A stretch of 31,342 bases of DNA. Source: Peduovirus P22H4. The stretch lies in the sequence record NC_049385.1. One strand, 5' to 3'. The stretch's first letter is position 1. The number at the start of each line of letters is the position of its first letter. Under the pieces are notes generated by a model that was not told the DNA's origin, did not search any database, and saw only the letters and a program-made list of their open reading frames with translations. Positions 1 through 31,342 of the stretch are shown in pieces. The position numbers were made by a program, and so were the translations under genes.

Positions 1-30
1 CGTGGGCTCGGAGATGTGTATAAGAGACAG
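1..30. other. Sequencing adapter remnant (Nextera/Tn5 read-2 adapter tail ending in the mosaic end AGATGTGTATAAGAGACAG)
   Basis: Bases 1-30 read CGTGGGCTCGGAGATGTGTATAAGAGACAG, which I recognise as the 3' portion of the Nextera transposase adapter; phage sequence begins at 31. Confidence 0.85.
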
Positions 31-40
31 GGGAAAGCAC
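31..40. other. cos: cos site, distal 10 nt (GGGAAAGCAC) of the P2 19-nt cohesive end
   Basis: Joined to 31324-31332 (GGCGAGGCG) this gives GGCGAGGCGGGGAAAGCAC, the P2 cohesive-end sequence as I recall it. Confidence 0.75.
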
Positions 41-183
41 TGCGCGCTGGCGGTGGTGCTGATTTTATTTTTTCAGCGTCTGAGCGCGTCGTGACGGCGT
101 TTGGATTGTGCGCCGGGGGCGCTGGTGTGTCTGCGGGGTGTTTTGTGCGGTGGTGAGCGTGTGAGGGCGTGATGACGGGGTGT

Positions 184-210: not shown

Positions 211-1245
211 TCAGCCGTTGTCAGTGTCCAGTGAGTAGTTTTTAAAGCGGATGACCTCCTGACCGAGCCAGCCGTTTATCTCGCGGATCCTGTCCTGTAA
301 CGGGATAAGCTCATTGCGGACAAAGACCTTTGCCACTTTCTCAATATCGCCCAGCGACCCGACGTTCTCCGGCTTGCCGCCCATCAACTGAAAGGGGATG
401 CGGTGCGCGTCCAGCAGGTCAGCGGCGCTGGCTTTTTTGATATTAAAAAAATCGTCCTTTGTTGCCACTTCACTGAGCGGGATAATTTTTATTCCATCTG
501 GTTTTCCCTGCGGTGCATAGAGAAACAGGTTTTTAAAGTTGTTGCGGCCTTTCGACTTCACCATGTTTTCGCGAAGCATTTCGATATCGTTGCGATCCTG
601 CACGGCATCGGTGACGTACATGATGTATCCGGCATGTGCGCCGTTTTCGTAATACTTTCGGCGGAACAGCGTGGCCGACTCATTCAGCCAGGCAGAGTTA
701 AGGGCGCTGAGGTATTCCGGCAGGCCGTACAGCTCCTGATTAATATCCGGCTCCAGCAGGTGAAACACGGAGCCGGGCGTGAAGGCTGTCGGCTCGTTGA
801 AGGACGGCACCCACCAGTAAACATCCTCCTCCACGCCACGGCGGGTATATTTTGCCGGTGAGGTTTCCAGTCTGATGACCTTACCGGTGGTGCTGTAACG
901 CTTTTCCAGAAACGCATTACCGAACACCAGAAAATCCAGCACAAAGCGGCTGAAATCCTGCTGGGAAAGCCACGGATGCGGGATAAATGTCGAGGCCAGA
1001 ATATTGCGTTTGACGTAAATCGGCGAGCTGTGATGCACGGCAGCACGCAGGCTTTTCGCCAGACCGGTAAAGCTGACCGGCGGCTCATACCATATGCCGT
1101 TACTGATGCACTCGACGTAATCCAGAATGTCACGGCGGTCGAGTACCGGCACCGGTTCGCCAAAGGTGAATGCCTCCATTTTCGGGGCGCTGGCGGTGAT
1201 TGTTTTTGCCGCAGGTTGCGGTGTTTTCCCTTTTTTCTTGCTCAT
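211..1245 (-). CDS. Q: Portal protein (P2 gpQ)
   Basis: 344-aa ORF on the minus strand beside cos; length and sequence match my recollection of P2 gpQ; its start overlaps the stop of P. Confidence 0.9.
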   Translation of the reverse strand: MSKKKGKTPQPAAKTITASAPKMEAFTFGEPVPVLDRRDILDYVECISNGIWYEPPVSFTGLAKSLRAAVHHSSPIYVKRNILASTFIPHPWLSQQDFSRFVLDFLVFGNAFLEKRYSTTGKVIRLETSPAKYTRRGVEEDVYWWVPSFNEPTAFTPGSVFHLLEPDINQELYGLPEYLSALNSAWLNESATLFRRKYYENGAHAGYIMYVTDAVQDRNDIEMLRENMVKSKGRNNFKNLFLYAPQGKPDGIKIIPLSEVATKDDFFNIKKASAADLLDAHRIPFQLMGGKPENVGSLGDIEKVAKVFVRNELIPLQDRIREINGWLGQEVIRFKNYSLDTDNG

Positions 1246-3017
1246 CAGTAAAACTCCAGAATGGTGGATGTCAGCGGGGTGCTGATACCGGCGGTGAGTG
1301 GCTCATTTAACAGGGCGTGCATGGTCGCCCAGGCGAGGTCGGCGTGGCTGGCTTCCTCGCTGCGGCTGGCCTCATAGGTGGCGCTGCGTCCGCTGCTGGT
1401 CATGGTCTTGCGGATAGCCATAAACGAGCTGGTGATGTCGGTGGCGCTGACGTCATATTCCAGACAGCCACGACGGATAACGTCTTTTGCCTTGAGCACC
1501 ATTGCGGTTTTCATTTCCGGTGTGTAGCGGATATCGCGCGCGGCGGGATAGAACGAGCGCACGAGCTGGAACACGCCGACACCGAGGCCGGTGGCATCAA
1601 TACCGATGTATTCGACGTTATATTTTTCGGTGAGTTTTCGGATGGATTCAGCCTGGGTGGCAAAGTCCATGCCTTTCCACTGGTGACGCTCAAGTATTCT
1701 GAATTTGCCTCCGGCCACCACCGGCGGTGCCAGTACCACGCATCCGGCGCTGTCGCCACGGTGTGACGGGTCGTAACCAATCCATACCGGGCGGGAGCCG
1801 AACGGATTGGCGGCAAAGGGTGCATAGTCTTCCCATTCTTCCAGCGTGTCGACCATGCAGCGTTGCAGCTCCTCGAACGGGAACACCGATGCCTTGTCGT
1901 CAACAAATTCACACATGAACAGGTTTTTAAAATCGTCGGCGCTGTTTTCGCGTTTAAGCTGCTCAATGTCGAACAGCGTGCAGCCACCTTTCAGGGCATC
2001 CTCAATGGTGACAATCTGCCGCCACTGGCCGTCCGCACAGAGAAGACCTCCGGCAAGGGCGTTATGACTGACGTCGATTTCCACGCGTTCGGCGGCGCTG
2101 GCGCGTCCCCGGTTGAACAGTTCACCCGACCAGAACGGGTAGGCGTCGTGCGCCAGCGTGGACGGGGTGGAGAAATAGGTCGAGCGCAGGTGACTCTGTG
2201 AGGCCATACCTGATGCCACCTTACGCAGTACCTGAAAATTCGGGATCCAGAAAATCTCGTCGACGTACAGGTCGCCGTTATGGCTCTGCGCGGTGTTGGA
2301 GTTGGTGCCGAGAAAAATCAGTTTTGCGCCGTTATTGCCCAGGACAATCGGGTCACCGGTCAGGTCAACGTCAACCAGACGGGCAAAGGCGATGATGTAT
2401 TCGCGGAACACATACGCCTGCGTTTTACTGGCCGACAGAAAAATCTGGTTATGACCTGTTTTCAGGGCGCGCAGCAGCGCCTCGCGGGAAAAATAAAACG
2501 TCGCGCCAATCTGGCGGGATTTCAGGATATCGCGGATGCGGTGCTCAAGCCCGGCGCGATACCAGTGCAACTGATATTCGAAAGACTGCTCAAAGAAAAT
2601 CTGCTCCAGCTTTTCGATAGCCTCGTCGCTGAAAAAATTCTTTTTCGGTTTGCGACGCCCGCCTTTGTTGCGGTTAGCGACGTTCGGATTAAGGTCTGCC
2701 TCGTTGCCGGTCTGGCTGTAGCGGTTTACCCGTGCCAGTCGTTCAATCTGGCGTCCGAGCAGGTCAATTTCCTTGAAGTCACCGCCGGTTTTCTGCGGTT
2801 TGATAATGAGCTGGGTCAGCCGCGCTTCCAGACTCATTTCGACACGGCTGATGGGGGCAACGCTGTCCCAGCCGTCGCGCTGTTTCCAGCTCTGCACCGT
2901 CGGGCGTTTCATCTGCAACATGGCGGCAATCTGCGGCACGGAAAACCCCTGCCAGTACAGCAGCGCCGCCTGATGACGCGGGTCGTGCAAAAGAGTGGTG
3001 TCTGTGGTGATGGTCAT
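1245..3017 (-). CDS. P: Terminase large (ATPase) subunit (P2 gpP)
   Basis: ORF track gives 600 aa from 3047; the internal ATG at 3017 (MTITTD...) gives 590 aa, matching P2 gpP; divergent from O as in P2. Confidence 0.88.
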   Translation of the reverse strand: MTITTDTTLLHDPRHQAALLYWQGFSVPQIAAMLQMKRPTVQSWKQRDGWDSVAPISRVEMSLEARLTQLIIKPQKTGGDFKEIDLLGRQIERLARVNRYSQTGNEADLNPNVANRNKGGRRKPKKNFFSDEAIEKLEQIFFEQSFEYQLHWYRAGLEHRIRDILKSRQIGATFYFSREALLRALKTGHNQIFLSASKTQAYVFREYIIAFARLVDVDLTGDPIVLGNNGAKLIFLGTNSNTAQSHNGDLYVDEIFWIPNFQVLRKVASGMASQSHLRSTYFSTPSTLAHDAYPFWSGELFNRGRASAAERVEIDVSHNALAGGLLCADGQWRQIVTIEDALKGGCTLFDIEQLKRENSADDFKNLFMCEFVDDKASVFPFEELQRCMVDTLEEWEDYAPFAANPFGSRPVWIGYDPSHRGDSAGCVVLAPPVVAGGKFRILERHQWKGMDFATQAESIRKLTEKYNVEYIGIDATGLGVGVFQLVRSFYPAARDIRYTPEMKTAMVLKAKDVIRRGCLEYDVSATDITSSFMAIRKTMTSSGRSATYEASRSEEASHADLAWATMHALLNEPLTAGISTPLTSTILEFY

Positions 3018-5180: not shown

Positions 5181-5924
5181 ATGACGAGTCCCGCACAGCG
5201 CCACATGATGCGGGTCTCGGCAGCGATGACCGCGCAGCGGGAAGCCGCCCCGCTGCGACATGCAACTGTCTATGAGCAGATGCTGGTTAAGCTCGCCGCA
5301 GACCAGCGCACACTGAAAGCGATTTATTCAAAAGAGCTTAAGGCCGCGAAAAAGCGCGAACTGCTGCCGTTCTGGTTGCCGTGGGTGAACGGTGTGCTGG
5401 AGCAGGGCAAAGGTGCACAGGATGACATTCTGATGACGGTCATGCTGTGGCGTCTGGATACCGGCGATATTGCCGGTGCGCTGGAGATTGCCCGTTATGC
5501 CCTGAAATACGGTCTGACCATGCCGGGTAAACACCGCCGTACCCCGCCGTACATGTTCACCGAGGAGGTGGCGCTCGCGGCCATGCGCGCTCACGCTGCC
5601 GGTGAGTCTGTGGATACCCGCCTGCTGACGGACACCCTCGAACTGACCGCCACGGCTGACATGCCTGATGAAGTGCGCGCAAAGCTGCACAAAATCACCG
5701 GTCTGTTTCTGCGTGACGCTGGTGATGCCGCCGGTGCGCTGGCTCACCTGCAACGTGCGACACAGCTCGACTGTCAGGCAGGCGTCAAAAAAGAGATTGA
5801 ACGACTGGAGCGGGAGCTGAAACCGAAGCCGGAGCCGCAGCCCAAAGCGGCCACCCGTGCCACGCGTAAGACCCGGAGCGTGACACCGGCAAAACGTGGA
5901 CGCCCGAAAAAGAAAGCCAGTTAA
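5181..5924 (+). CDS. M: Terminase small (endonuclease) subunit (P2 gpM)
   Basis: 247-aa ORF immediately after N; basic Lys/Arg/Pro-rich C-terminal tail; P2 gpM length and position. Confidence 0.88.
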   Translation: MTSPAQRHMMRVSAAMTAQREAAPLRHATVYEQMLVKLAADQRTLKAIYSKELKAAKKRELLPFWLPWVNGVLEQGKGAQDDILMTVMLWRLDTGDIAGALEIARYALKYGLTMPGKHRRTPPYMFTEEVALAAMRAHAAGESVDTRLLTDTLELTATADMPDEVRAKLHKITGLFLRDAGDAAGALAHLQRATQLDCQAGVKKEIERLERELKPKPEPQPKAATRATRKTRSVTPAKRGRPKKKAS

Positions 5925-9391: not shown

Positions 9392-9457
9392 TTGTGCCAT
9401 TCCCGACACCTCATCGTCACATTGCCGCCGGTATGACCCGGCGGCATCCTTCCCGTT
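9392..9457 (+). promoter_or_regulatory. Putative late promoter upstream of V (P2 PV equivalent)
   Basis: 66-bp intergenic gap before the V-W-J-I-H-G operon; assigned by position from P2 knowledge only. Confidence 0.35.
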
Positions 9458-11883: not shown

Positions 11884-14130
11884 ATGAGCACAAAATTCAG
11901 AACCGTTATCACCACTGCCGGTGCAGCAAAGCTGGCAGCGGCAACCGCGCCGGGAGGGCGGAAGGTCAACATTACCACGATGGCCGTCGGGGATGGCGGT
12001 GGTAAATTGCCTGTCCCGGATGCCGGACAGACCGGGCTTATCCACGAAGTCTGGCGACATGCGCTGAACAAAATCAGCCAGGACAAACGAAACAGTAATT
12101 ATATTATCGCAGAGCTGGTTATTCCGCCGGAGGTGGGCGGTTTCTGGATGCGTGAGCTTGGCCTGTACGATGATGCGGGAACGTTAATTGCCGTGGCGAA
12201 CATGGCCGAAAGTTATAAGCCTGCCCTTGCCGAAGGCTCAGGGCGTTCGCAGACCTGCCGTATGGTCATCATCGTCAGCAGTGTGGCCTCAGTGGAGCTG
12301 ACCATTGACACCACAACGGTGATGGCAACGCAGGATTATGTTGATGACAAAATTGCAGAACATGAACAGTCACGACGTCACCCGGACGCCTCGCTGACCG
12401 CCAAAGGTTTTACTCAGTTAAGCAGTGCGACCAACAGCACGTCTGAAACACTCGCCGCAACACCAAAAGCGGTAAAAGCAGCATATGACCTTGCTAACGG
12501 AAAATATACCGCTCAGGACGCCAGCACGGGGCGAAAAGGTCTTGTCCAGCTCAGTAGTGCCACCAACAGCACGTCTGAAACGCTCGCCGCAACACCAAAA
12601 GCGGTAAAAGCAGCATATGACCTTGCTAACGGGAAATACACTGCACAGGATGCCACCACCGCGCGAAAAGGCCTTGTTCAGCTCAGTAGTGCCACCAACA
12701 GCGATTCTGAAACGCTGGCCGCAACGCCAAAGGCGGTTAAGACAGCGTATGACCTTGCTAACGGGAAATACACTGCACAGGATGCCACCACAGCGCGAAA
12801 AGGTCTTGTCCAGCTAAGTAGCGCCACCAACAGTGATTCTGAAACGCTGGCCGCAACACCAAAAGCGGTGAAGTCTGCCAATGACAATGCTGAAAAACGT
12901 CTTCAGAAAGATCAGAACGGTGCGGATATTCCTGATAAAGAACGCTTCCTGAGTAACATTAATGTTTACAGCAAAGGTGAAGTGGATAAGAAAAAGGGAA
13001 TGCGAAAGTATTCGTTTGCAGCCCCTGCAAATGTCGTTGCCGGGAAGTGGTATCCCGTTATCTTTCGCCGTGCTGCCAGCCTTTCAGGAGAAATGGCATC
13101 CCGCGTCGTTATTTCCACTGGTTGTTATAACGGCGATTATGTAATGAATAACTGCGAGTTTAATGGCATGGTTATGCCCGGAGGATGGACTGATCGTGGT
13201 TCATATGCGGCAGGTTATTTCTGGACGTATCAGACCAATGAGCGTTCAATCCATTCCATTGTTACAAGCCTGAAAGATGATGATGTATGTAGTGTTTTTT
13301 ATGTTGAAGCCAGAGCTTTCCCTGTGCAAATTCTTGCAGAGGAAGGGCTAACGGTTATTGTTCCGACAGAGGATTATGTCGTCGGTCAAACGACATATAA
13401 GTGGGGGGCAACTAATCCCGCTACAGAAAGCACGAACGCACAGGCTATTCTGGATTTTAAAAATGGGCGCGGTTATTACTGCTCACATCCATTTATTTCT
13501 AACCTTTCAGGAAATGCTGCAACAGCCTCAAAACTCGAAACACCGAGGAAAATAGCAGGTGTTGCCTTTGATGGTTCTGGAGATATTACCCTTAATGCCA
13601 GAAATGTCGGTGCATTTGCACTTCGGCAGACAGGTAATACGGTTAATGGTGATACAGCCGTTGGATGGAATTGGGACAGTGGCGCATACAACGCTCTGAT
13701 TGGGGGAGCATCTGCATTAATTCTTCACTTTAATATAAATGCTGGTAGCTGCCCGGCTGTACAGTTTCGTGTGAATTATAAAAATGGCGGTATATCTTAC
13801 AGGTCAGCCCGTGATGGTTATGGTTTTGAATCTGGCTGGTCTGATTTCTATACCACAACACGAAAACCCTCAGCGGGAGATGTTGGTGCATACACCAAAG
13901 CTGAGTCAGATTCACGTTATGTGAGAGACATGCGGCTGGGCGGTGCATCTACATATAAACCAGCAAATAATGGTACTGCATGGACGCATCAGGCTCCGTC
14001 AGGTTGCGTATATACCGGCATTATTGTTCAGGATACCGGCTCAAACTCTGCCGATAACATTGGTGGCGTATATTACAGACCAGTGCAGAAATACATTAAC
14101 GGGACATGGTATAACGTGGCGCAGGTATAA
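11884..14130 (+). CDS. H: Tail fibre protein (P2 gpH-like) with expanded internal repeats and a divergent distal half
   Basis: 748-aa ORF, longer than the ~669 aa I recall for P2 H; N-terminal region is GC-rich and P2-like; contains 44-aa tandem repeats; the C-terminal half is lower in GC. Confidence 0.85.
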   Translation: MSTKFRTVITTAGAAKLAAATAPGGRKVNITTMAVGDGGGKLPVPDAGQTGLIHEVWRHALNKISQDKRNSNYIIAELVIPPEVGGFWMRELGLYDDAGTLIAVANMAESYKPALAEGSGRSQTCRMVIIVSSVASVELTIDTTTVMATQDYVDDKIAEHEQSRRHPDASLTAKGFTQLSSATNSTSETLAATPKAVKAAYDLANGKYTAQDASTGRKGLVQLSSATNSTSETLAATPKAVKAAYDLANGKYTAQDATTARKGLVQLSSATNSDSETLAATPKAVKTAYDLANGKYTAQDATTARKGLVQLSSATNSDSETLAATPKAVKSANDNAEKRLQKDQNGADIPDKERFLSNINVYSKGEVDKKKGMRKYSFAAPANVVAGKWYPVIFRRAASLSGEMASRVVISTGCYNGDYVMNNCEFNGMVMPGGWTDRGSYAAGYFWTYQTNERSIHSIVTSLKDDDVCSVFYVEARAFPVQILAEEGLTVIVPTEDYVVGQTTYKWGATNPATESTNAQAILDFKNGRGYYCSHPFISNLSGNAATASKLETPRKIAGVAFDGSGDITLNARNVGAFALRQTGNTVNGDTAVGWNWDSGAYNALIGGASALILHFNINAGSCPAVQFRVNYKNGGISYRSARDGYGFESGWSDFYTTTRKPSAGDVGAYTKAESDSRYVRDMRLGGASTYKPANNGTAWTHQAPSGCVYTGIIVQDTGSNSADNIGGVYYRPVQKYINGTWYNVAQV
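12406..12873 (+). repeat. Coding tandem repeat, 132-bp period, about 3.5 copies (44-aa tail-fibre repeat)
   Basis: Three full near-identical 132-bp units begin at 12406, 12538 and 12670, with a partial fourth from 12802; each encodes G(L/F)xQLSSATNS(T/D)SETLAATPKAVK(A/T)AYDLANGKYTAQDA. Confidence 0.9.
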
Positions 14131-14133
14131 TTT

Positions 14134-14661
14134 ATGCAGCATTTAAAAAATATTACGGCGGGTAATCCAAAAACGGTTGAACAATATCAATTGACAAAGG
14201 ACTTTGATGTTGTCTGGTTTTTTTCAGAAGATGGTAAGAACTGGTACGAACAACAAAAGTATTTTGCTGATGACACGATAAAAATAGCGTACGACAAAGA
14301 TAATATTATCCGCTATGTGGAAAAGGATGTGACAGCTATCAGACCGGATGGATTAAGTGTGGTTGAAGTGGCGGATATTACTGCTAATCGGCGGGCGGAC
14401 ATTTCAGGGAACTGGATGTTTAAGGACGGCAAAGTGATTAAACGCATTTATACGGAAGAGGAATTACAGCAGCAGGCAGAAATTCGGAAAGCCAGACTTC
14501 TTGCAGATGCTGAATCCGTGATTTTGCCGCTGGAGCGCGCGGTCAGACTGAACATGGCAACAGATGAGGAGCGTAGCCGACTGGATGCATGGGAGCGTTA
14601 CAGCGTTCTGGTCAGTCGTGTGGATCCTGCAAATCCTGAATGGCCGGAAATGCCGCAATAA
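14134..14661 (+). CDS. G: Tail fibre assembly chaperone (P2 gpG-like)
   Basis: 175-aa ORF immediately after H; AT-rich like the distal part of H. Confidence 0.8.
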
Positions 14662-14853
14662 GTTGTATGAGCTCTGGTGTGAGCTTACATATCTATGGCA
14701 CAGAGTAAAGACTAATCTGACAGTCCGCTCTGTGCCAAAAACGGGCAGAGTGAATGGCTAAGTCTAGCTCATTAGAAATGTTCGCTTCATGAAAATGGCT
14801 GCAGCAAGGATCTATCTCACTGCGGCCTCTTTACAATAACGAAATTTTGCGAG

Positions 14854-15609
14854 CTATTCCTTGGCCTCTTTATTTTTCTCGCCATCGCCAATGTAAAGAA
14901 GATAATCGTTTAAGGATATCCTTCCGGAGGGGCCGGTCCATGTTATCCATCCGTTCTCACGAAGATTAAATAATGCTTCCATGAACTCATTATCGTTAAA
15001 AGAATGATCCTCTGAGAACAGAATGTTCATTTTTCTCAATAGTTCTTCCACTTTAATCTTTTCATATCGCCTTATCAGACTTAGTGCTTTACGACGCATT
15101 AAGATTGTAGGTACTGCTTGTGAACGAATGGTTTTTTGTATTCCACTATCAAGAACTTTCTTGATCTTACTCTCTAACTCTTTGATTTTAGTTTCATTAT
15201 CTCCATTGGACTTAAGCTTTTCATCAACGATGCAAATAATTTCCTGACTAATGCTGTTCTTGAGGTTGTTTATTTTTTCTTCATTGTTGAGAATCTCATC
15301 AGAGCTTCCTGCATGGGGTTTTTTCCATATGTGCTGACGCATATCCGTTACCGTATCTCTCATCATAGAGAATGTATCTGAATATAACTTGTCAAATATT
15401 TTTTCCAGTCGTTCGACACTTGCCTGGATGTCTTTTGCTGCTTTAGTTGTCTCTTTAGAAGCCTCATTCGACATTTTATAAAAAACAAAAGAAAGCCAAA
15501 TAGCCCCAATGGCGAGTACTAATGAGGCTATTGTGGCAATAAAACCTATTATTGTTATTGCTGTATCTAATGTACCTGCTGCATCTGTGACTACTGTTTC
15601 TGCTGCCAT
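14854..15609 (-). CDS. Hypothetical membrane-anchored protein; AT-rich cargo gene at the P2 Z/fun hotspot, candidate exclusion or defence function
   Basis: 251-aa ORF on the opposite strand to the flanking late operons; ATG start with an AGGA-type RBS; one predicted N-terminal TM helix (ITIIGFIATIASLVLAIGAIWLSFVFY) then a Lys/Glu-rich helical region; about 33% GC on the line I counted. Confidence 0.7.
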   Translation of the reverse strand: MAAETVVTDAAGTLDTAITIIGFIATIASLVLAIGAIWLSFVFYKMSNEASKETTKAAKDIQASVERLEKIFDKLYSDTFSMMRDTVTDMRQHIWKKPHAGSSDEILNNEEKINNLKNSISQEIICIVDEKLKSNGDNETKIKELESKIKKVLDSGIQKTIRSQAVPTILMRRKALSLIRRYEKIKVEELLRKMNILFSEDHSFNDNEFMEALFNLRENGWITWTGPSGRISLNDYLLYIGDGEKNKEAKE

Positions 15610-16119
15610 ATATCCTCAATATTTAACCATACAGGGTAGCGTGTTTTAACCGCGGGGAAGTCGGGGTGGTGACACCCTAGCCTTACCCCGATTCCAGAGT
15701 ATTTATTTATCATACCATTGAAACTATTTAATTTTATCGAAAATTTTGTCAGAGCGTGACTGAAAAGTCTTCAGCACGTCAAGCATATCGTCGCCGTTCA
15801 ATTAACACTGAGCCTTTTCTTAGAGGGGTGGGCTGCGCAGTTGCGAGGTTATGCCCCAGTTCCTAGTTCCTCACTACATTCTAATTAAGCCGGCCAACTA
15901 AATGTCCGCTTTTCGCTCAAAGCAGACTGTCAGATTTGATAGCGTTTGGGCTATGTAAATTGTCAGTTGGAAAATGAGTGAGTACAAATCAGGATAGGCT
16001 GGCGGATTACCCGCCTTTTCTTTGTCTGTTGTTTCATCCCCTGACCAGCCAGGTCAAATAGCGTCTCATGCTCTGCACAACAGAAAATAGTTGCACCCAT
16101 TAACCACGGAGTTAAACGG
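15610..16119. promoter_or_regulatory. Long intergenic region holding the presumed cargo-gene promoter and the late promoter for FI (P2 PF equivalent)
   Basis: 510 bp with no ORF of 60 aa or more in the track; divergent layout between the minus-strand cargo gene and FI. Confidence 0.4.
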
Positions 16120-22824: not shown

Positions 22825-22851
22825 AAAAAATAAGCCCGTGTAAGGGAGATT
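22825..22851. other. attP: attP core (P2 27-bp att core AAAAAATAAGCCCGTGTAAGGGAGATT)
   Basis: Exact 27-bp string present between ogr and int; matches the P2 att core as I recall it. Confidence 0.7.
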
Positions 22852-22930
22852 TAGGGTGTCACCAGTAGGGGCTTTCAACGGTACAATGCGGGTTTGAGCG
22901 GCATAAATTACCACTGAAAGCCCTTAAACG

Positions 22931-24059: not shown

Positions 24060-24359
24060 TTAACCAGTCTTTTGACCGGAGTGGGGCGACGTTGTTTCGT
24101 TTTGCCCAAAGTGTGCGAGAGCGGGCGCAATTTGCCCGGACTCAGGAGCGATCTGATTGGTCATGAACCATAAAGTGTATTTGGTGAATTGTGGGGTCTG
24201 CAGGATGTTCATCATGACATCTGTTGGAGGTGTTGAACGACCACTTTCATAGTAACTCAGCGTGCCATACGGAACCCCTGTTAAATCAGCAAGTTGTTGT
24301 CTGCTCAAATACTCTGATTTTCGCATTAAGACTATCTTCTCGCTTATCGTGTTTGACAT
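24060..24359 (-). CDS. C: Immunity repressor C
   Basis: 99-aa ORF, P2 C length, with a helix-turn-helix-like segment (LSRQQLADLTGVPYGTLSYYESG); divergent from cox. Confidence 0.88.
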   Translation of the reverse strand: MSNTISEKIVLMRKSEYLSRQQLADLTGVPYGTLSYYESGRSTPPTDVMMNILQTPQFTKYTLWFMTNQIAPESGQIAPALAHFGQNETTSPHSGQKTG

Positions 24360-26513: not shown

Positions 26514-28788
26514 AGCCTCCGGGCGTTTTGTCCCTCCGTCAGCATTTGCCGCAGGCACCGGTAAGGCGTTTACCGGTGCTTATGCATGGAACGCGCCACG
26601 CGAGGCCGTCGGGCGCGAAAGACCCCTTACACGTGACGAGATGCGTCAGGTGCAAGGTGTTTTATCCACGATTAACCGCCTGCCTTACTTTTTGCGCTCG
26701 CTGTTTACTTCACGCTATGACTACATCCGGCGCAATAAAAGCCCGGTGCACGGGTTTTATTTTCTCACATCCACTTTTCAGCGTCGTTTATGGCCGCGCA
26801 TTGAGCGTGTGAATCAGCGCCATGAAATGAACACCGACGCGTCGTTGCTGTTTCTGGCAGAGCGTGACCATTATGCGCGTCTGCCGGGGATGAATGACAA
26901 GGAGCTGAAAAAGTTTGCCGCCCGTATCTCATCGCAGCTTTTCATGATGTATGAGGAACTCTGCGATGCCTGGGTGGATGCGCATGGCGAGAAAGAATCG
27001 CTGTTTACGGATGAGGCACAGGCTCACCTGTATGGTCATGTTGCTGGCGCTGCACGAGCTTTCAATATTTCCCCTCTCTACTGGAAAAAATACCGTAAAG
27101 GGCAGATGACCACGAGGCAGGCATATTCTGCCATTGCCCGTCTGTTTAACGATGAGTGGTGGATTAGTCAGCTTAAAGGCCAGCGTATGCGCTGGCATGA
27201 GGCGTTACTGATTGCTGTCGGGGAGGTCAATAAAGACCGTTCTCCTTATGCCAGTAAACATGCCATTCGTGATGTGCGTGCACGCCGCCAGGCAAATCTG
27301 GAATTTCTTAAATCGTGTGATCTCGAAAACAGGGAAACCGGCGAGCGCATCGACCTTATCAGTAAGGTGATGGGCAGTATTTCTAATCCTGAAATTCGCC
27401 GGATGGAGCTGATGAACACCATTGCCGGTATTGAGCGTTACGCCGCAGCAGAGGGTGATGTGGGGATGTTTATCACGCTGACCGCGCCGTCAAAGTATCA
27501 CCCGACACGTCAGGTTGGAAAAGGCGAAAGTAAAACCGTCCAGCTAAATCACGGCTGGAACGATGAGGCATTTAATCCAAAGGATGCGCAGCGTTATCTC
27601 TGCCGTATCTGGAGCCTGATGCGCACGGCATTCAAGGATAATGATTTACAGGTCTACGGTTTGCGTGTCGTCGAGCCACACCACGACGGAACGCCGCACT
27701 GGCATATGATGCTTTTTTGTAATCCGCGCCAGCGTAACCAGATTATCGAAATCATGCGTCGCTATGCGCTCAAAGAGGATGGCGACGAAAGAGGAGCCGC
27801 GCGAAACCGTTTTCAGGCAAAACACCTTAATCGGGGCGGTGCTGCGGGGTATATCGCGAAATACATCTCAAAAAACATCGACGGCTATGCACTGGATGGT
27901 CAGCTCGATAATGATACCGGTAGGCCGCTGAAAGACACAGCTGCTGCTGTTACCGCATGGGCGTCAACGTGGCGCATTCCGCAATTTAAAACGGTTGGTC
28001 TGCCGACAATGGGGGCTTACCGTGAACTACGCAAATTGCCTCGCGGCGTCAGCATTGCTGATGAGTTTGACGAGCGCGTCGAGGCTGCACGCGCCGCCGC
28101 AGACAGTGGTGATTTTGCGTTGTATATCAGCGCGCAGGGTGGGGCAAATGTTCCGCGCGATTGTCAGACTGTCAGAGTCGCCCGTAGCCCGTCGGATGAC
28201 GTTAACGAGTACGAGGAAGAGGTCGAGAGAGTGGTCGGCATTTACGCGCCGCATCTCGGCGCGCGTCATATTCATATCACCAGAACGACGGACTGGCGCA
28301 TTGTGCCGAAAGTGCCGGTCGTTGAGCCTTTGACGTTAAAAAGCGGCATCGCCGCGCCTCGGAGTCCTGTCAATAACTGTGGAAAGCTCACCGGTGGTGA
28401 TACTTCGTCACCGGCTCCCACGCCTTCTGAACACGCCGCAGCAGTGCTTAATCTGGTTGATGATGGTGTTATCGAATGGAATGACCCGGAGGTCGTGAGG
28501 GCGCTCAGGGGTGCATTAAAACACGACCTGAGAACGCCAAACCGTCAACAAAGAAACGGAAGCCCGTTAAAACCACATGAAATTGCACCATCGGCCAGAC
28601 TGACCCGGTCGGAAAGAATGCAAATTACCCGTATCCGCGTTGACCTTGCTCAGAACGGTATCAGGCCGCAGCGATGGGAGCTTGAGGCGCAGGCGCGTGG
28701 CGCGACCGTAAATTATGACGGGAAAAAATTCACGTATCCGGTCGCTGATGAGTGGCCGGGATTCTCAACAGTAATGGAGTGGAAATGA
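26503..28788 (+). CDS. A: Rolling-circle replication initiator (P2 gpA, HUH endonuclease)
   Basis: ATG at 26503 gives 761 aa, the P2 A length; HUH motif HWH at codons 399-401 (nt 27697-27705); tyrosine pair YIAKY with Y at codons 450 and 454 (nt 27850-27864). Confidence 0.9.
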   Translation: MAVKASGRFVPPSAFAAGTGKAFTGAYAWNAPREAVGRERPLTRDEMRQVQGVLSTINRLPYFLRSLFTSRYDYIRRNKSPVHGFYFLTSTFQRRLWPRIERVNQRHEMNTDASLLFLAERDHYARLPGMNDKELKKFAARISSQLFMMYEELCDAWVDAHGEKESLFTDEAQAHLYGHVAGAARAFNISPLYWKKYRKGQMTTRQAYSAIARLFNDEWWISQLKGQRMRWHEALLIAVGEVNKDRSPYASKHAIRDVRARRQANLEFLKSCDLENRETGERIDLISKVMGSISNPEIRRMELMNTIAGIERYAAAEGDVGMFITLTAPSKYHPTRQVGKGESKTVQLNHGWNDEAFNPKDAQRYLCRIWSLMRTAFKDNDLQVYGLRVVEPHHDGTPHWHMMLFCNPRQRNQIIEIMRRYALKEDGDERGAARNRFQAKHLNRGGAAGYIAKYISKNIDGYALDGQLDNDTGRPLKDTAAAVTAWASTWRIPQFKTVGLPTMGAYRELRKLPRGVSIADEFDERVEAARAAADSGDFALYISAQGGANVPRDCQTVRVARSPSDDVNEYEEEVERVVGIYAPHLGARHIHITRTTDWRIVPKVPVVEPLTLKSGIAAPRSPVNNCGKLTGGDTSSPAPTPSEHAAAVLNLVDDGVIEWNDPEVVRALRGALKHDLRTPNRQQRNGSPLKPHEIAPSARLTRSERMQITRIRVDLAQNGIRPQRWELEAQARGATVNYDGKKFTYPVADEWPGFSTVMEWK

Positions 28789-29240
28789 TGGCAAAAATTC
28801 ACGAGGTAAAGCTGCACGCAAAATATTTTGACCTTGTGCTGGAAGGAAAGAAACGCGCAGAGTTTCGGAAAAATGACCGTAATTATGAGCGCGGGGACAC
28901 GTTGATTTTGCATGAATGGGGGCAGGGTGTGTTTACGGGGCGAAAGGTTGAAGCCCGGATAACAGATGTTACTGACCTGTCAGACTGGCTGGAAGACTAT
29001 GTCTTGCTAAGTATTGAGCTGCTTAATACAGGCGCATATGAGATTGTGAACTGGAAAGAACTTAGTGAGCGTGGCCTGGTATTCAGAATTAATCATGAAA
29101 TTATGCATCAGCTCGGCCTTGCTGTTATGTATGAACCAGAGACGGGGATGTCTGGCGGGGCAATGGTCGCCACGGATGGAGCATGGAACTATTCAGATGA
29201 ACAGATGGAGCGTGCACAGCAAAACGGGTGGCTTGGATAA
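28785..29240 (+). CDS. Hypothetical protein (P2 orf91-like) with an ASCH/DUF3850-like N-terminal domain
   Basis: ATG at 28785 overlapping the A stop, 151 aa; N-terminus IHEVKLHAKYFDLVLEGKKRAEFRKNDRNYERGDTLILHEW resembles the DUF3850/ASCH pattern as I recall it. Confidence 0.6.
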   Translation: MMAKIHEVKLHAKYFDLVLEGKKRAEFRKNDRNYERGDTLILHEWGQGVFTGRKVEARITDVTDLSDWLEDYVLLSIELLNTGAYEIVNWKELSERGLVFRINHEIMHQLGLAVMYEPETGMSGGAMVATDGAWNYSDEQMERAQQNGWLG

Positions 29241-29446
29241 TGCACAGAATACCAGGCGAGATACCGCACCATAAAACTAAAAATATCAAGCTGATGGCTA
29301 TTGTTCAGCGTTTACAGCGGATTATGGTCAACGAAAATCTGACGCCCGATGAGCTGGTCGGGTGTGCCGAAATAGTACGGGATAATTACGGGCGGCTTAA
29401 CTATATCGGTCAGTCCAGAGTTGCGCCACCACCACGCAGACGATAG
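29240..29446 (+). CDS. Small hypothetical protein
   Basis: ATG at 29240 overlapping the preceding stop; 68 aa, basic C-terminus; backbone-like GC. Confidence 0.45.
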   Translation: MHRIPGEIPHHKTKNIKLMAIVQRLQRIMVNENLTPDELVGCAEIVRDNYGRLNYIGQSRVAPPPRRR

Positions 29447-29669
29447 AGAACACCGCCAGTCGTGAAACTTGTTTTCAGGGCTGGCGGGGTTGAACAACGA
29501 GCGAAGCGAGACGTTAGTTGACAGACATATTTTTACTACGTTGGTGCTGGTTTTTGACGGTTGAAAGGAGTTAGGTTGGAGAGCTAACAACTTACAAATA
29601 TTCAAAAGTAAGCATCCTGTTGCTAACATGAGGTTGATTTTTTATGTGGATGATGCAAAAAGGATAGCT

Positions 29670-30401
29670 ATGGATACTATAATCGCTTTTCTATCACTCG
29701 CTTTTTTCGTTGCTTTCTTCATCGGGTTAATCAAGCCATCACTGGTGCGAATGCCAAACCGCAAACGTGCAAGTGCGGTTTATCTCGGAGGAGGTTTTGT
29801 ATTGAGCATAATTGGTTCAATACTCTATCCAACAGAAAAAAGCCAGCCAGTTGCTAAAACTGAAACATCAACCGTTGCAGAACACAAAGTCCAAAAAACA
29901 TTCGAATATGGTGAAAAAACACTCAAGGAATATCGGAACGAGTCAAAGAAAACACGACACGATATTGTGAATAGTTACATTGATTTTAAGGAAGTTCCAG
30001 CCACCGCGTCAGATGCGTTTTATGCCTGCATGAGTGAGTATACATTTACCAAAGATGATGAGTTGAAACTCGGTGATGTTCTTGGGTGGTGCTTTAATGA
30101 TTATGAAAATGACCCGAGTTCACTAAACAATAAAATCAATCTTGATACATTTCAGAGTAATTTTAGTGGTTGGGATGGTTCTTATCGTCCATTGGAAAAA
30201 CTAATTAAAGATAATATGAACGATGATTCATCTTATAAACATGTGTCAACGGTATATCATCTGGTTTTGAATAAAGACCCGCATGCCATTGTGAAAACCA
30301 CGTTTCGCGGAACTAATGCTTATGGCGGAGTGGTGAAACAGACGATTGCTGCGCGTGTCAATGTAGAAACAGGTGAGGTTGTATCAATTATAAGTGAGTG
30401 A
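29670..30401 (+). CDS. Hypothetical membrane protein (two predicted N-terminal TM helices); cargo gene 1 at the P2 tin/old hotspot
   Basis: ATG at 29670 preceded by AAAAAGGA; 243 aa; TM segments IIAFLSLAFFVAFFIGLI and AVYLGGGFVLSIIGSILY, then a soluble domain; AT-rich; no Walker A motif. Confidence 0.65.
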   Translation: MDTIIAFLSLAFFVAFFIGLIKPSLVRMPNRKRASAVYLGGGFVLSIIGSILYPTEKSQPVAKTETSTVAEHKVQKTFEYGEKTLKEYRNESKKTRHDIVNSYIDFKEVPATASDAFYACMSEYTFTKDDELKLGDVLGWCFNDYENDPSSLNNKINLDTFQSNFSGWDGSYRPLEKLIKDNMNDDSSYKHVSTVYHLVLNKDPHAIVKTTFRGTNAYGGVVKQTIAARVNVETGEVVSIISE

Positions 30402-30499
30402 ACTGTGCCAGAATGATAAAGATGCCAGCATTTATGCTGGCAATCATAAAAATAGTGACTAGCAAAAATTGGTGTCTGGTTTTAATGTGAGATTAGAAA

Positions 30500-31198
30500 A
30501 TGAATAGATGTAAATATATTTTAAGAGGTTTGTTGCTGAAGTTTAAAAGTATAAGTTCTATGCATTTGTTATTTGTTTTAATAACGGCTTGTCTATTCTT
30601 TTTTATAGGGTGTTACGTGGGTTATAGTGGTATTGGTTTGAATGGTGACACTAAATACCAATTAATTACAATACCTTTTTTGACCATGTTGGGTACTTGG
30701 GTTTCTGGGGTGGGAGCATTTTCTGCTGTTGCGACATCATTGTTGTTGGCACACCGTTCGCTAAAGGAAAATTCAGAAGAAATTGCTATTCGATATAGCA
30801 TGGTGTTAATGCCATCAATGTACTTACCTAGCACTACAGATACAGCAATATCAATAACCATAACAAACAAAAGAAAAGTAAGGAGTAATATTCAATCGGT
30901 TGTTTTGCAATTTTCTAATAATAAAGCAATGAATATATTGGTAAACCCCGGGACGCTTATCTCTGGCAAGTTACCGCATGTTTTAGAAGACTATGGTGAT
31001 ATATTGACGCTTATAATTCCAGAGAGCATTATCGCATCAGTAACTGATGAGGGGTTCGTAAAAGAATGTCAGGGGAATACTCTTGGAGAAGGTAGTGTCG
31101 TAGTTCACACAACGACAAAAACATTTGTAAAAAAATTAACATTACCTCAAATTAAGCCATTTAATGATAAATTTAAGTCTGTATTGACGAAACCGTAA
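30500..31198 (+). CDS. Hypothetical membrane protein (two predicted TM helices); cargo gene 2 at the P2 tin/old hotspot
   Basis: 232-aa ORF; TM segments LLFVLITACLFFFIGCYVGY and LITIPFLTMLGTWVSGVGAFSAVATSLLL, then a Ser/Thr/Val-rich domain; about 25% GC on the line counted; start uncertain (ATG 30500 has a weak RBS, alternative ATG at 30560). Confidence 0.6.
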   Translation: MNRCKYILRGLLLKFKSISSMHLLFVLITACLFFFIGCYVGYSGIGLNGDTKYQLITIPFLTMLGTWVSGVGAFSAVATSLLLAHRSLKENSEEIAIRYSMVLMPSMYLPSTTDTAISITITNKRKVRSNIQSVVLQFSNNKAMNILVNPGTLISGKLPHVLEDYGDILTLIIPESIIASVTDEGFVKECQGNTLGEGSVVVHTTTKTFVKKLTLPQIKPFNDKFKSVLTKP

Positions 31199-31323
31199 GA
31201 GGTGCGTTGCGTTGCATTTTTTTGCATCTTCAAGGATTAATTTCTGCATCTTTATTTTGCCAGTACTGATGTGCTTTTAATGGACTCATGCAACTGCATT
31301 AAAACCGCCCCATGAAGCGGGCG

Positions 31324-31332
31324 GGCGAGGCG
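31324..31332. other. cos: cos site, proximal 9 nt (GGCGAGGCG) of the P2 19-nt cohesive end
   Basis: Last phage bases before the terminal adapter; completes the cos 19-mer with bases 31-40. Confidence 0.75.
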
Positions 31333-31342
31333 CTGTCTCTTA
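31333..31342. other. Sequencing adapter remnant (start of CTGTCTCTTATACACATCT, the reverse-complement Tn5 mosaic end)
   Basis: Terminal CTGTCTCTTA matches the first 10 nt of the Nextera read-through adapter. Confidence 0.75.

Follow-up and report, generated by a model that had tools for sequence, protein, structure and literature searches.

The cos site of bacteriophage P2 has been characterised since the 1970s. P2 terminase, which consists of gpM and gpP, acts on cos in circular or concatemeric DNA: it recognises the site, introduces nicks that lie 19 nt apart on the two strands and packages the DNA into gpN/gpQ proheads. The resulting linear virion DNA has 5'-protruding GGCGAGGCGGGGAAAGCAC ends, which anneal after injection and are sealed into a circle by host ligase. 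The P2 cos site is also exploited by P4.

In the P2 record (NC_001895.1), the 19-mer is found at bases 1-19, annotated as "cosL; left cohesive end", and again at 33575-33593, annotated as "cosR". PMC3931495 gives the same sequence for the "19-nt 5'-extruding cohesive ends" of P2-related phages and cites Padmanabhan, Wu & Calendar 1974 for it. A core of ~55 bp around the cleavage sites is needed for packaging (Ziermann & Calendar 1990, as relayed in PMC3931495). Satellite P4 (NC_001609.1) and phage 186 (NC_001317.1) both possess 5'-protruding 19-nt cos sites. The 186 record places the top-strand cut at the 5' end of the 19-mer and the bottom-strand cut at its 3' end, and the overhangs are therefore 5'. 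The cos site of lambda likewise undergoes staggered nicking by terminase to yield 5' cohesive ends that are annealed and ligated after injection (PMC5557969, PhageTerm). However, the lambda overhang measures 12 nt rather than 19 nt, its sequence is unrelated and its terminase belongs to a different family, i.e., the likeness is confined to the kind of mechanism.

The cos site formed by the joined ends

The window, by which we mean the whole stretch of DNA analysed (31,342 nucleotides), has one part of the P2 cohesive-end sequence near each of its ends (Table 1). The two parts, GGCGAGGCG and GGGAAAGCAC, each occur once in the window. When 31324-31332 was joined to 31-40, the product was GGCGAGGCGGGGAAAGCAC, identical to the annotated cosL and cosR of P2. 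The initial annotation had named this as the P2 cohesive-end sequence and had proposed that it was split across the window ends; the sequence agreed with NC_001895.1 and PMC3931495, and the coordinates and the split were as described. Given that a 19-mer would be matched exactly by chance with a probability of ~4^-19, and that the neighbouring conserved cos core also agrees, the match cannot be attributed to chance.

The bases lying outside the two halves are not of phage origin. Positions 1-30 match the 3' end of the Nextera Read-2 adapter exactly (…CGTGGGCTCGGAGATGTGTATAAGAGACAG), this stretch being closed at 12-30 by the 19-nt Tn5 mosaic end AGATGTGTATAAGAGACAG. At the other extremity, the window finishes with the beginning of a reverse-complemented mosaic end. 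A string search for further mosaic-end fragments of at least 12 nt found none elsewhere in the window.

Table 1. Coordinates of features in the window, with the basis of each assignment or its counterpart in P2
Feature	Position	Strand	Basis or comparison
Last 30 nt of Nextera Read-2 adapter (non-phage sequencing artefact)	1..30		Exact string match
Positions 10-19 of the 19-nt P2 cohesive-end sequence (GGGAAAGCAC)	31..40	+	Identical to P2 cosL bases 10-19
Right flank of cos core, conserved (TGCGCGC)	41..47	+	Alignment
Q, portal protein	211..1245	-	98.5% identical to P2 gpQ; PF04860 on identical protein
P, terminase large (ATPase) subunit	1245..3017	-	99.7% identical to P2 gpP; Terminase_6N/6C Pfam on identical protein
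M, terminase small/endonuclease subunit	5181..5924	+	98.4% identical to P2 gpM
S-V intergenic locus, empty (66 nt between S and V)	about 9392..9457		P2 9370-10307 with orf30; about -874 bp
Tail-fibre gene H, C-terminal part	12609..14085	+	P2 13459-14698; about +237 bp; no full-length P2 counterpart
Z/fun accessory locus	14745..15904		P2 15357-17432; about -916 bp; fun(Z) replaced by 251-aa ORF
attP core	22825..22852	+	28/28 identical to P2
Replication origin region around gpA nick site	28342..28381	+	40/40 identical to P2 29873-29912
Right-end accessory (tin/old) locus	29009..31294	+	P2 from 30540; about -720 bp; tin and old replaced
Left flank of cos core, conserved (TGCATTAAAACCGCCCCATGAAGCGGGCG), 29 nt	31295..31323	+	Alignments
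Positions 1-9 of the 19-nt cohesive-end sequence (GGCGAGGCG)	31324..31332	+	Exact string match
CTGTCTCTTA, first 10 nt of reverse-complemented Tn5 mosaic end (sequencing artefact, adapter read-through)	31333..31342		Exact match

The joined window was compared by alignment with the same region, closed to a circle, of P2, satellite P4 and phage 186 and with that of a prophage of E. coli H10. All five share a largely conserved block, consisting of TGCATTAAAACCGCCCCnTGAAGCGGGCG, then the 19-mer, then TGCGCGC. In the window, this core of ~55 bp comprises 31295-31332 plus 31-47 and shows no indel relative to P2, P4 or 186. The last six bases of TGCGCGC are invariant in the window, P2, P4, 186 and the H10 prophage, with the first base being C in P4. 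To the left of the block, the aligned junctions carry unrelated accessory DNA. To the right, P2-type phages remain similar through the Q terminator and within Q itself, whereas similarity is partial in 186 and absent from P4. Comparison of the junction with the P2 reference cos region, a check that had been proposed with the initial annotation, thus showed an identical 19-mer within a flanking core that aligns.

The two relatives with described 19-nt sites differ from the window to unequal degrees. The 19-mer of P4, which forms the first 19 nt of its genome, is identical to that of the window, whereas that of 186 (GGCGTGGCGGGGAAAGCAT) differs at two positions. Both share with the window the core TGCATTAAAACCG.CCC...AAG.GGGC. 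followed by the 19-mer and GCGCGC. Outside this core, the flanks of P4 are unrelated, and those of 186 have diverged but keep some similarity on the right side. A conserved hairpin just left of the nick (CCGCCC...GGGCGG) was considered and rejected, as its register is lost in 186 when the alignment is examined by eye.

The site is also placed as in P2 and in prophages, with the nonessential region of the right end on one side and the leftward Q-P packaging operon on the other. Q ends 180 nt to the right of the junction, and the last cargo gene ends 134 nt to its left. The cognate terminase subunits gpP and gpM are both encoded at full length in the same genome. At the level of sequence, every component of the P2 cos mechanism is present and essentially identical to its P2 equivalent, and the site is a P2-family (Peduoviridae) cos site both on the ~55-bp core and on all of the sequence features considered here.

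As cos is internal in prophages, these elements and other assemblies provide an independent test of the adjacency of the window ends. The joined stretch of 314 nt, which includes cos and is bounded by the stop codons of the last cargo gene and of Q, was found, contiguous and 100% identical, in at least 10 independent assemblies (loci L004, L005 and L008-L015); the sources of these matches were four NCBI bacterial assemblies, three Logan contigs, an ENA human-gut metagenome contig and a JGI metagenome contig. A query of 800 nt, made by joining 400 bases from the right end of the phage sequence to 400 from its left end, aligned along its whole length and without interruption to the E. coli H10 chromosome, at 97% identity. 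The gene order of the H10 prophage is int-C-cox…A-orf91-cargo-cos-Q-P, and its 19-mer is intact.

The two window ends meet precisely, without loss or duplication of any base, since the joined junction is exact in independent contigs and the window, once trimmed of adapter, is as long as phage 9W without its redundancy (see below). The genome had been described in the initial annotation as complete and circularly closed. This description is supported, in that the window holds a complete unit genome with abutting ends, but the window is a linear, adapter-flanked contig rather than a circular assembly. Circular closure is deduced from the abutting ends, the window itself having no read-through. 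Moreover, the break lies in the middle of the 19-mer (9|10), away from the natural nick positions, so that the window ends are not the virion termini.

Gene content, accessory loci and relation to 9W

P2 has the same gene order as the window and ~97% nucleotide identity to it over ~25.6 kb, and nucleotide alignment showed the two to be fully collinear apart from four replaced blocks. The translations of 42 P2 genes served as queries against the window. Of these proteins, 38 were present without stops, at 94-100% identity except for the assembly protein G (74%), and the matches were full-length for all but H and orf91. The same search yielded no match in the window for orf30, fun(Z), tin or old, each of which is annotated as nonessential in the P2 record. 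C, cox and ogr were 100% identical to their P2 counterparts, and int 99.7%.

The initial annotation had placed Q and P directly inside the left end, cargo genes inside the right end and an entire phage genome of about 31.3 kb between them, roughly 2 kb shorter than P2 on account of different cargo at the accessory loci. All of this was borne out. Q and P are located as stated (Table 1), non-P2 cargo was found at the right end, and the phage part amounts to one exact unit genome of 31,302 bp. This is 2,272 bp less than the 33,574-bp P2 unit genome, a shortfall for which the four replaced blocks account. Since 31,302 bp falls between the genome of 186 (30,624 bp), a viable relative that is shorter still, and that of P2, the DNA should be packageable in the same type of capsid. 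Judged by its genes, by attP and ori, and by the representation of every base once, the genome is that of a complete Peduovirus.

Of the four replaced blocks, the S-V locus is simply empty in the window; the H10 prophage carries orf30 at this position, like P2 and unlike the window. The tail-fibre gene H (11884-14130) encodes 748 aa, as against 669 aa in P2, and its match to the P2 protein is limited to the first 251 residues. It contains a 132-nt (44-aa) tandem repeat present in 3.4 copies at 12424-12869, and within 12609-14085 only the repeat copies up to 12873 match P2, at ~86%. The divergence of H and G (region 11884-14661) suggests that receptor specificity may differ from that of P2.

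In the Z/fun locus, the replacement ORF of 251 aa (14854-15609, minus strand) has a low GC content (~36%), an N-terminal hydrophobic segment and a charged, helical-looking remainder, and it matches phrog_36054, a family of unknown function. Because the same locus in P2 holds an anti-T5 gene, the 251-aa ORF is a candidate exclusion/defence gene.

GC also drops to ~36% across 29009-31198, at the right end. Here the orf91 homologue is extended to 151 aa, matches P2 over the first 75 of 109 residues and carries DUF3850/ASCH and DUF7415 domains. It is accompanied by a 68-aa ORF matching phrog_11386, by a 243-aa homologue of Orf97 (29670-30401) and by a 232-aa predicted membrane protein (30500-31198) that matches phrog_23429/16957, also of unknown function. 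The Orf97 homologue is 78% identical to Orf97 of 186, and the 186 record states that plasmid-expressed Orf97 blocks 186 infection. Searches of the cargo proteins against Pfam, NCBIfam and PADLOC returned no significant family other than DUF3850/ASCH/DUF7415 on the orf91 homologue, and PHROGs returned unknown-function families only.

The phage is already known, having been deposited as Escherichia phage 9W (Peduovirus; GenBank OM475431.1), a phage from E. coli lysogens. When the window was circularised and rotated to the same start, the two sequences differed at one base over the 31,302-bp unit genome and had the same cos and the same cargo genes. The sole difference, G at window position 13978 and A in 9W, results in A699 of H in the window and T699 in 9W, and could either stem from sequencing or assembly or reflect true variation in the part of H that binds the receptor. 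A look-up of the H protein of the window itself gave no record. The 9W record is 31,622 bp long, starts 189 nt before the window-end junction (180 nt before the cos 19-mer) and reads through cos; its last 320 bases repeat its first 320, i.e., it is terminally redundant, and it carries no adapter. The non-redundant length is hence 31,302 bp. Over the variable region 11884-16100, which includes the tail-fibre and Z/fun loci, 9W was the only phage record with a match of at least 80% coverage, at ~100% identity. A literature search by the 9W accession found no paper.

Several features of the 9W annotation were noted in passing. The record is labelled "partial genome" despite containing the full unit plus the 320-bp redundancy. 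A 48-aa "hypothetical protein" is annotated in it twice (169-315 and 31471-31617), each time spanning the cos 19-mer; this ORF is probably spurious and would be split in virion DNA. It also omits the immunity repressor C, which lies at 24060-24359 in the window and is 100% identical to C of P2.

Position of the contig ends

We are highly confident that the window represents the exact 31,302-bp unit genome of a P2-type temperate myovirus (Peduovirus), within one base of 9W, in the form of a linear contig that has both ends inside cos and is flanked by untrimmed Nextera adapter. Its breakpoints are proposed to stem from cos-cut virion DNA that had been tagmented. Were a 31,302-bp circle broken at random, the probability of a break inside the 19-mer would be ~6e-4, which ties the observed break to the physical ends of the DNA. 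Furthermore, the fusion of adapter to phage bases implies Tn5 strand transfer at those very phosphodiesters. The position of the break thus suggests that cos-cut virion DNA served as the template. A contig broken within the 19-mer, with adapter on either side, also lends indirect support to virion DNA ending at these positions in single strands of 19 nt that protrude at the 5' end.

The library would have been generated by Tn5 tagmentation of such DNA, either linear or merely hydrogen-bonded at its cohesive ends. No amplifiable fragment would then extend across the nicks, the extreme termini would be lost, and assembly would halt where the outermost strand transfers took place, 9 nt inward of the 5' terminus on the top strand and 10 nt inward of that on the bottom strand. 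As these distances add up to 19, each half of the cohesive end is represented once and the contig looks exactly closed. Nextera and other tagmentation libraries are reported to lose phage termini (PMC5557969; PMC8785237), which fits a contig that ends a few bases short of each terminus. The template need not have been purely linear, given that junction-spanning reads were obtainable for the 9W record.

Two Tn5 events are required by this geometry. A single insertion into closed cos was rejected as an explanation, since one event gives a 9-bp overlap (start p, end p+8) and the window ends, which abut, show none. In the coordinates of the 19-mer, the two events would be (p=10, m=18) and (p=1, m=9). 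In the latter, the partner site coincides with the natural top-strand nick, and in the former, it misses the bottom-strand nick by 1 nt. A nick-guided Tn5 geometry was likewise rejected, as it fits the right junction, 9 bp from the top-strand nick, to the base but is off by 1 nt at the left one; the 9/10 asymmetry is not predicted by simple geometry.

It was also considered whether the adapter junctions, at 9 and 10 nt from the 5' termini, might constitute a reproducible Tn5 footprint beside 5' cohesive ends, a proposal that we regard as rather unlikely. The same adapter-cos fusion, on either side, had 0 matches in public viral, metagenome and genome contigs, and a literature search on the minimum distance of Tn5 from DNA ends found nothing useful. 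If the footprint were true, cos termini, and even the length of the overhang, would be readable from the stops of Nextera assemblies, counter to the usual view that tagmentation data hold no information on termini. Even so, the phage and its cos site would still be entirely known.

We weighed the origin of the breakpoints in virion DNA against a contig assembled from circular, concatemeric or prophage DNA, which the assembler cut arbitrarily within cos and to which adapter tips became attached with no tie to the cohesive ends. The assembly of 9W through cos, with its redundancy, indicates that a covalently continuous template exists for this phage. In addition, the length of the left-end adapter, 30 nt, equals k-1 at k=31, pointing to graph mechanics as having shaped the ends; that the contig started at an adapter hub node of a k=31 de Bruijn graph is only an idea. 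Nevertheless, we consider an arbitrary cut improbable. It would have to hit one given 19-nt element of the circle by chance, adapter is joined on both ends at exactly one phosphodiester of that element, and the host flank that would be expected of a prophage-derived contig is absent.

The reported loss of phage termini from Nextera libraries also lends itself to the reading that tagmentation had removed terminal bases, such that the genome is incomplete and the 19-mer a fortuitous join that hides missing sequence. This is refuted by the contiguity of the joined 314 nt in the independent assemblies and in 9W, by the indel-free alignment of the core to P2, P4 and 186, and by the equality of the adapter-trimmed length with that of non-redundant 9W; we therefore give it hardly any credence. 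Just as little weight attaches to a defective or cryptic P2-like element that has kept an intact cos but is not a viable phage. The genome is indeed 2.3 kb below P2 in size and lacks four P2 genes. However, all four are nonessential according to the P2 record, the remaining P2 genes are free of stops, and attP, ori and cos are intact; its GenBank twin 9W was deposited as a phage obtained from lysogens, and 186 is viable though shorter. Tagmented, cos-cut virion DNA carrying one complete unit genome is thus the reading that we retain.

A different kind of stop near cos was seen in a P2-like prophage contig from Logan (L017, SRR5574004_145), which ends 3 nt to the left of the cos 19-mer and carries no adapter. 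This stop is likely a branch point in the assembly graph, with the sample containing more than one P2-like element and the conserved cos adjoining the variable cargo of each.

Curation and biological context

For deposited versions of the window, adapter trimming is needed at both ends. The value of the finding for curation is that a complete genome is obtained once the 40 nt of adapter have been trimmed and the sequence has been re-permuted to start at the cos 19-mer.

The cos site is a known element in a known phage and involves no new biology. P2-like prophages are frequent in E. coli, with matches in 3,094 of 5,426 complete genomes, 649 of which extended over at least 80% of a 25-kb query. 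With cos long known and the phage already in GenBank, the finding carries little biological weight; what distinguishes this phage from P2 sits at the accessory loci and not at cos.
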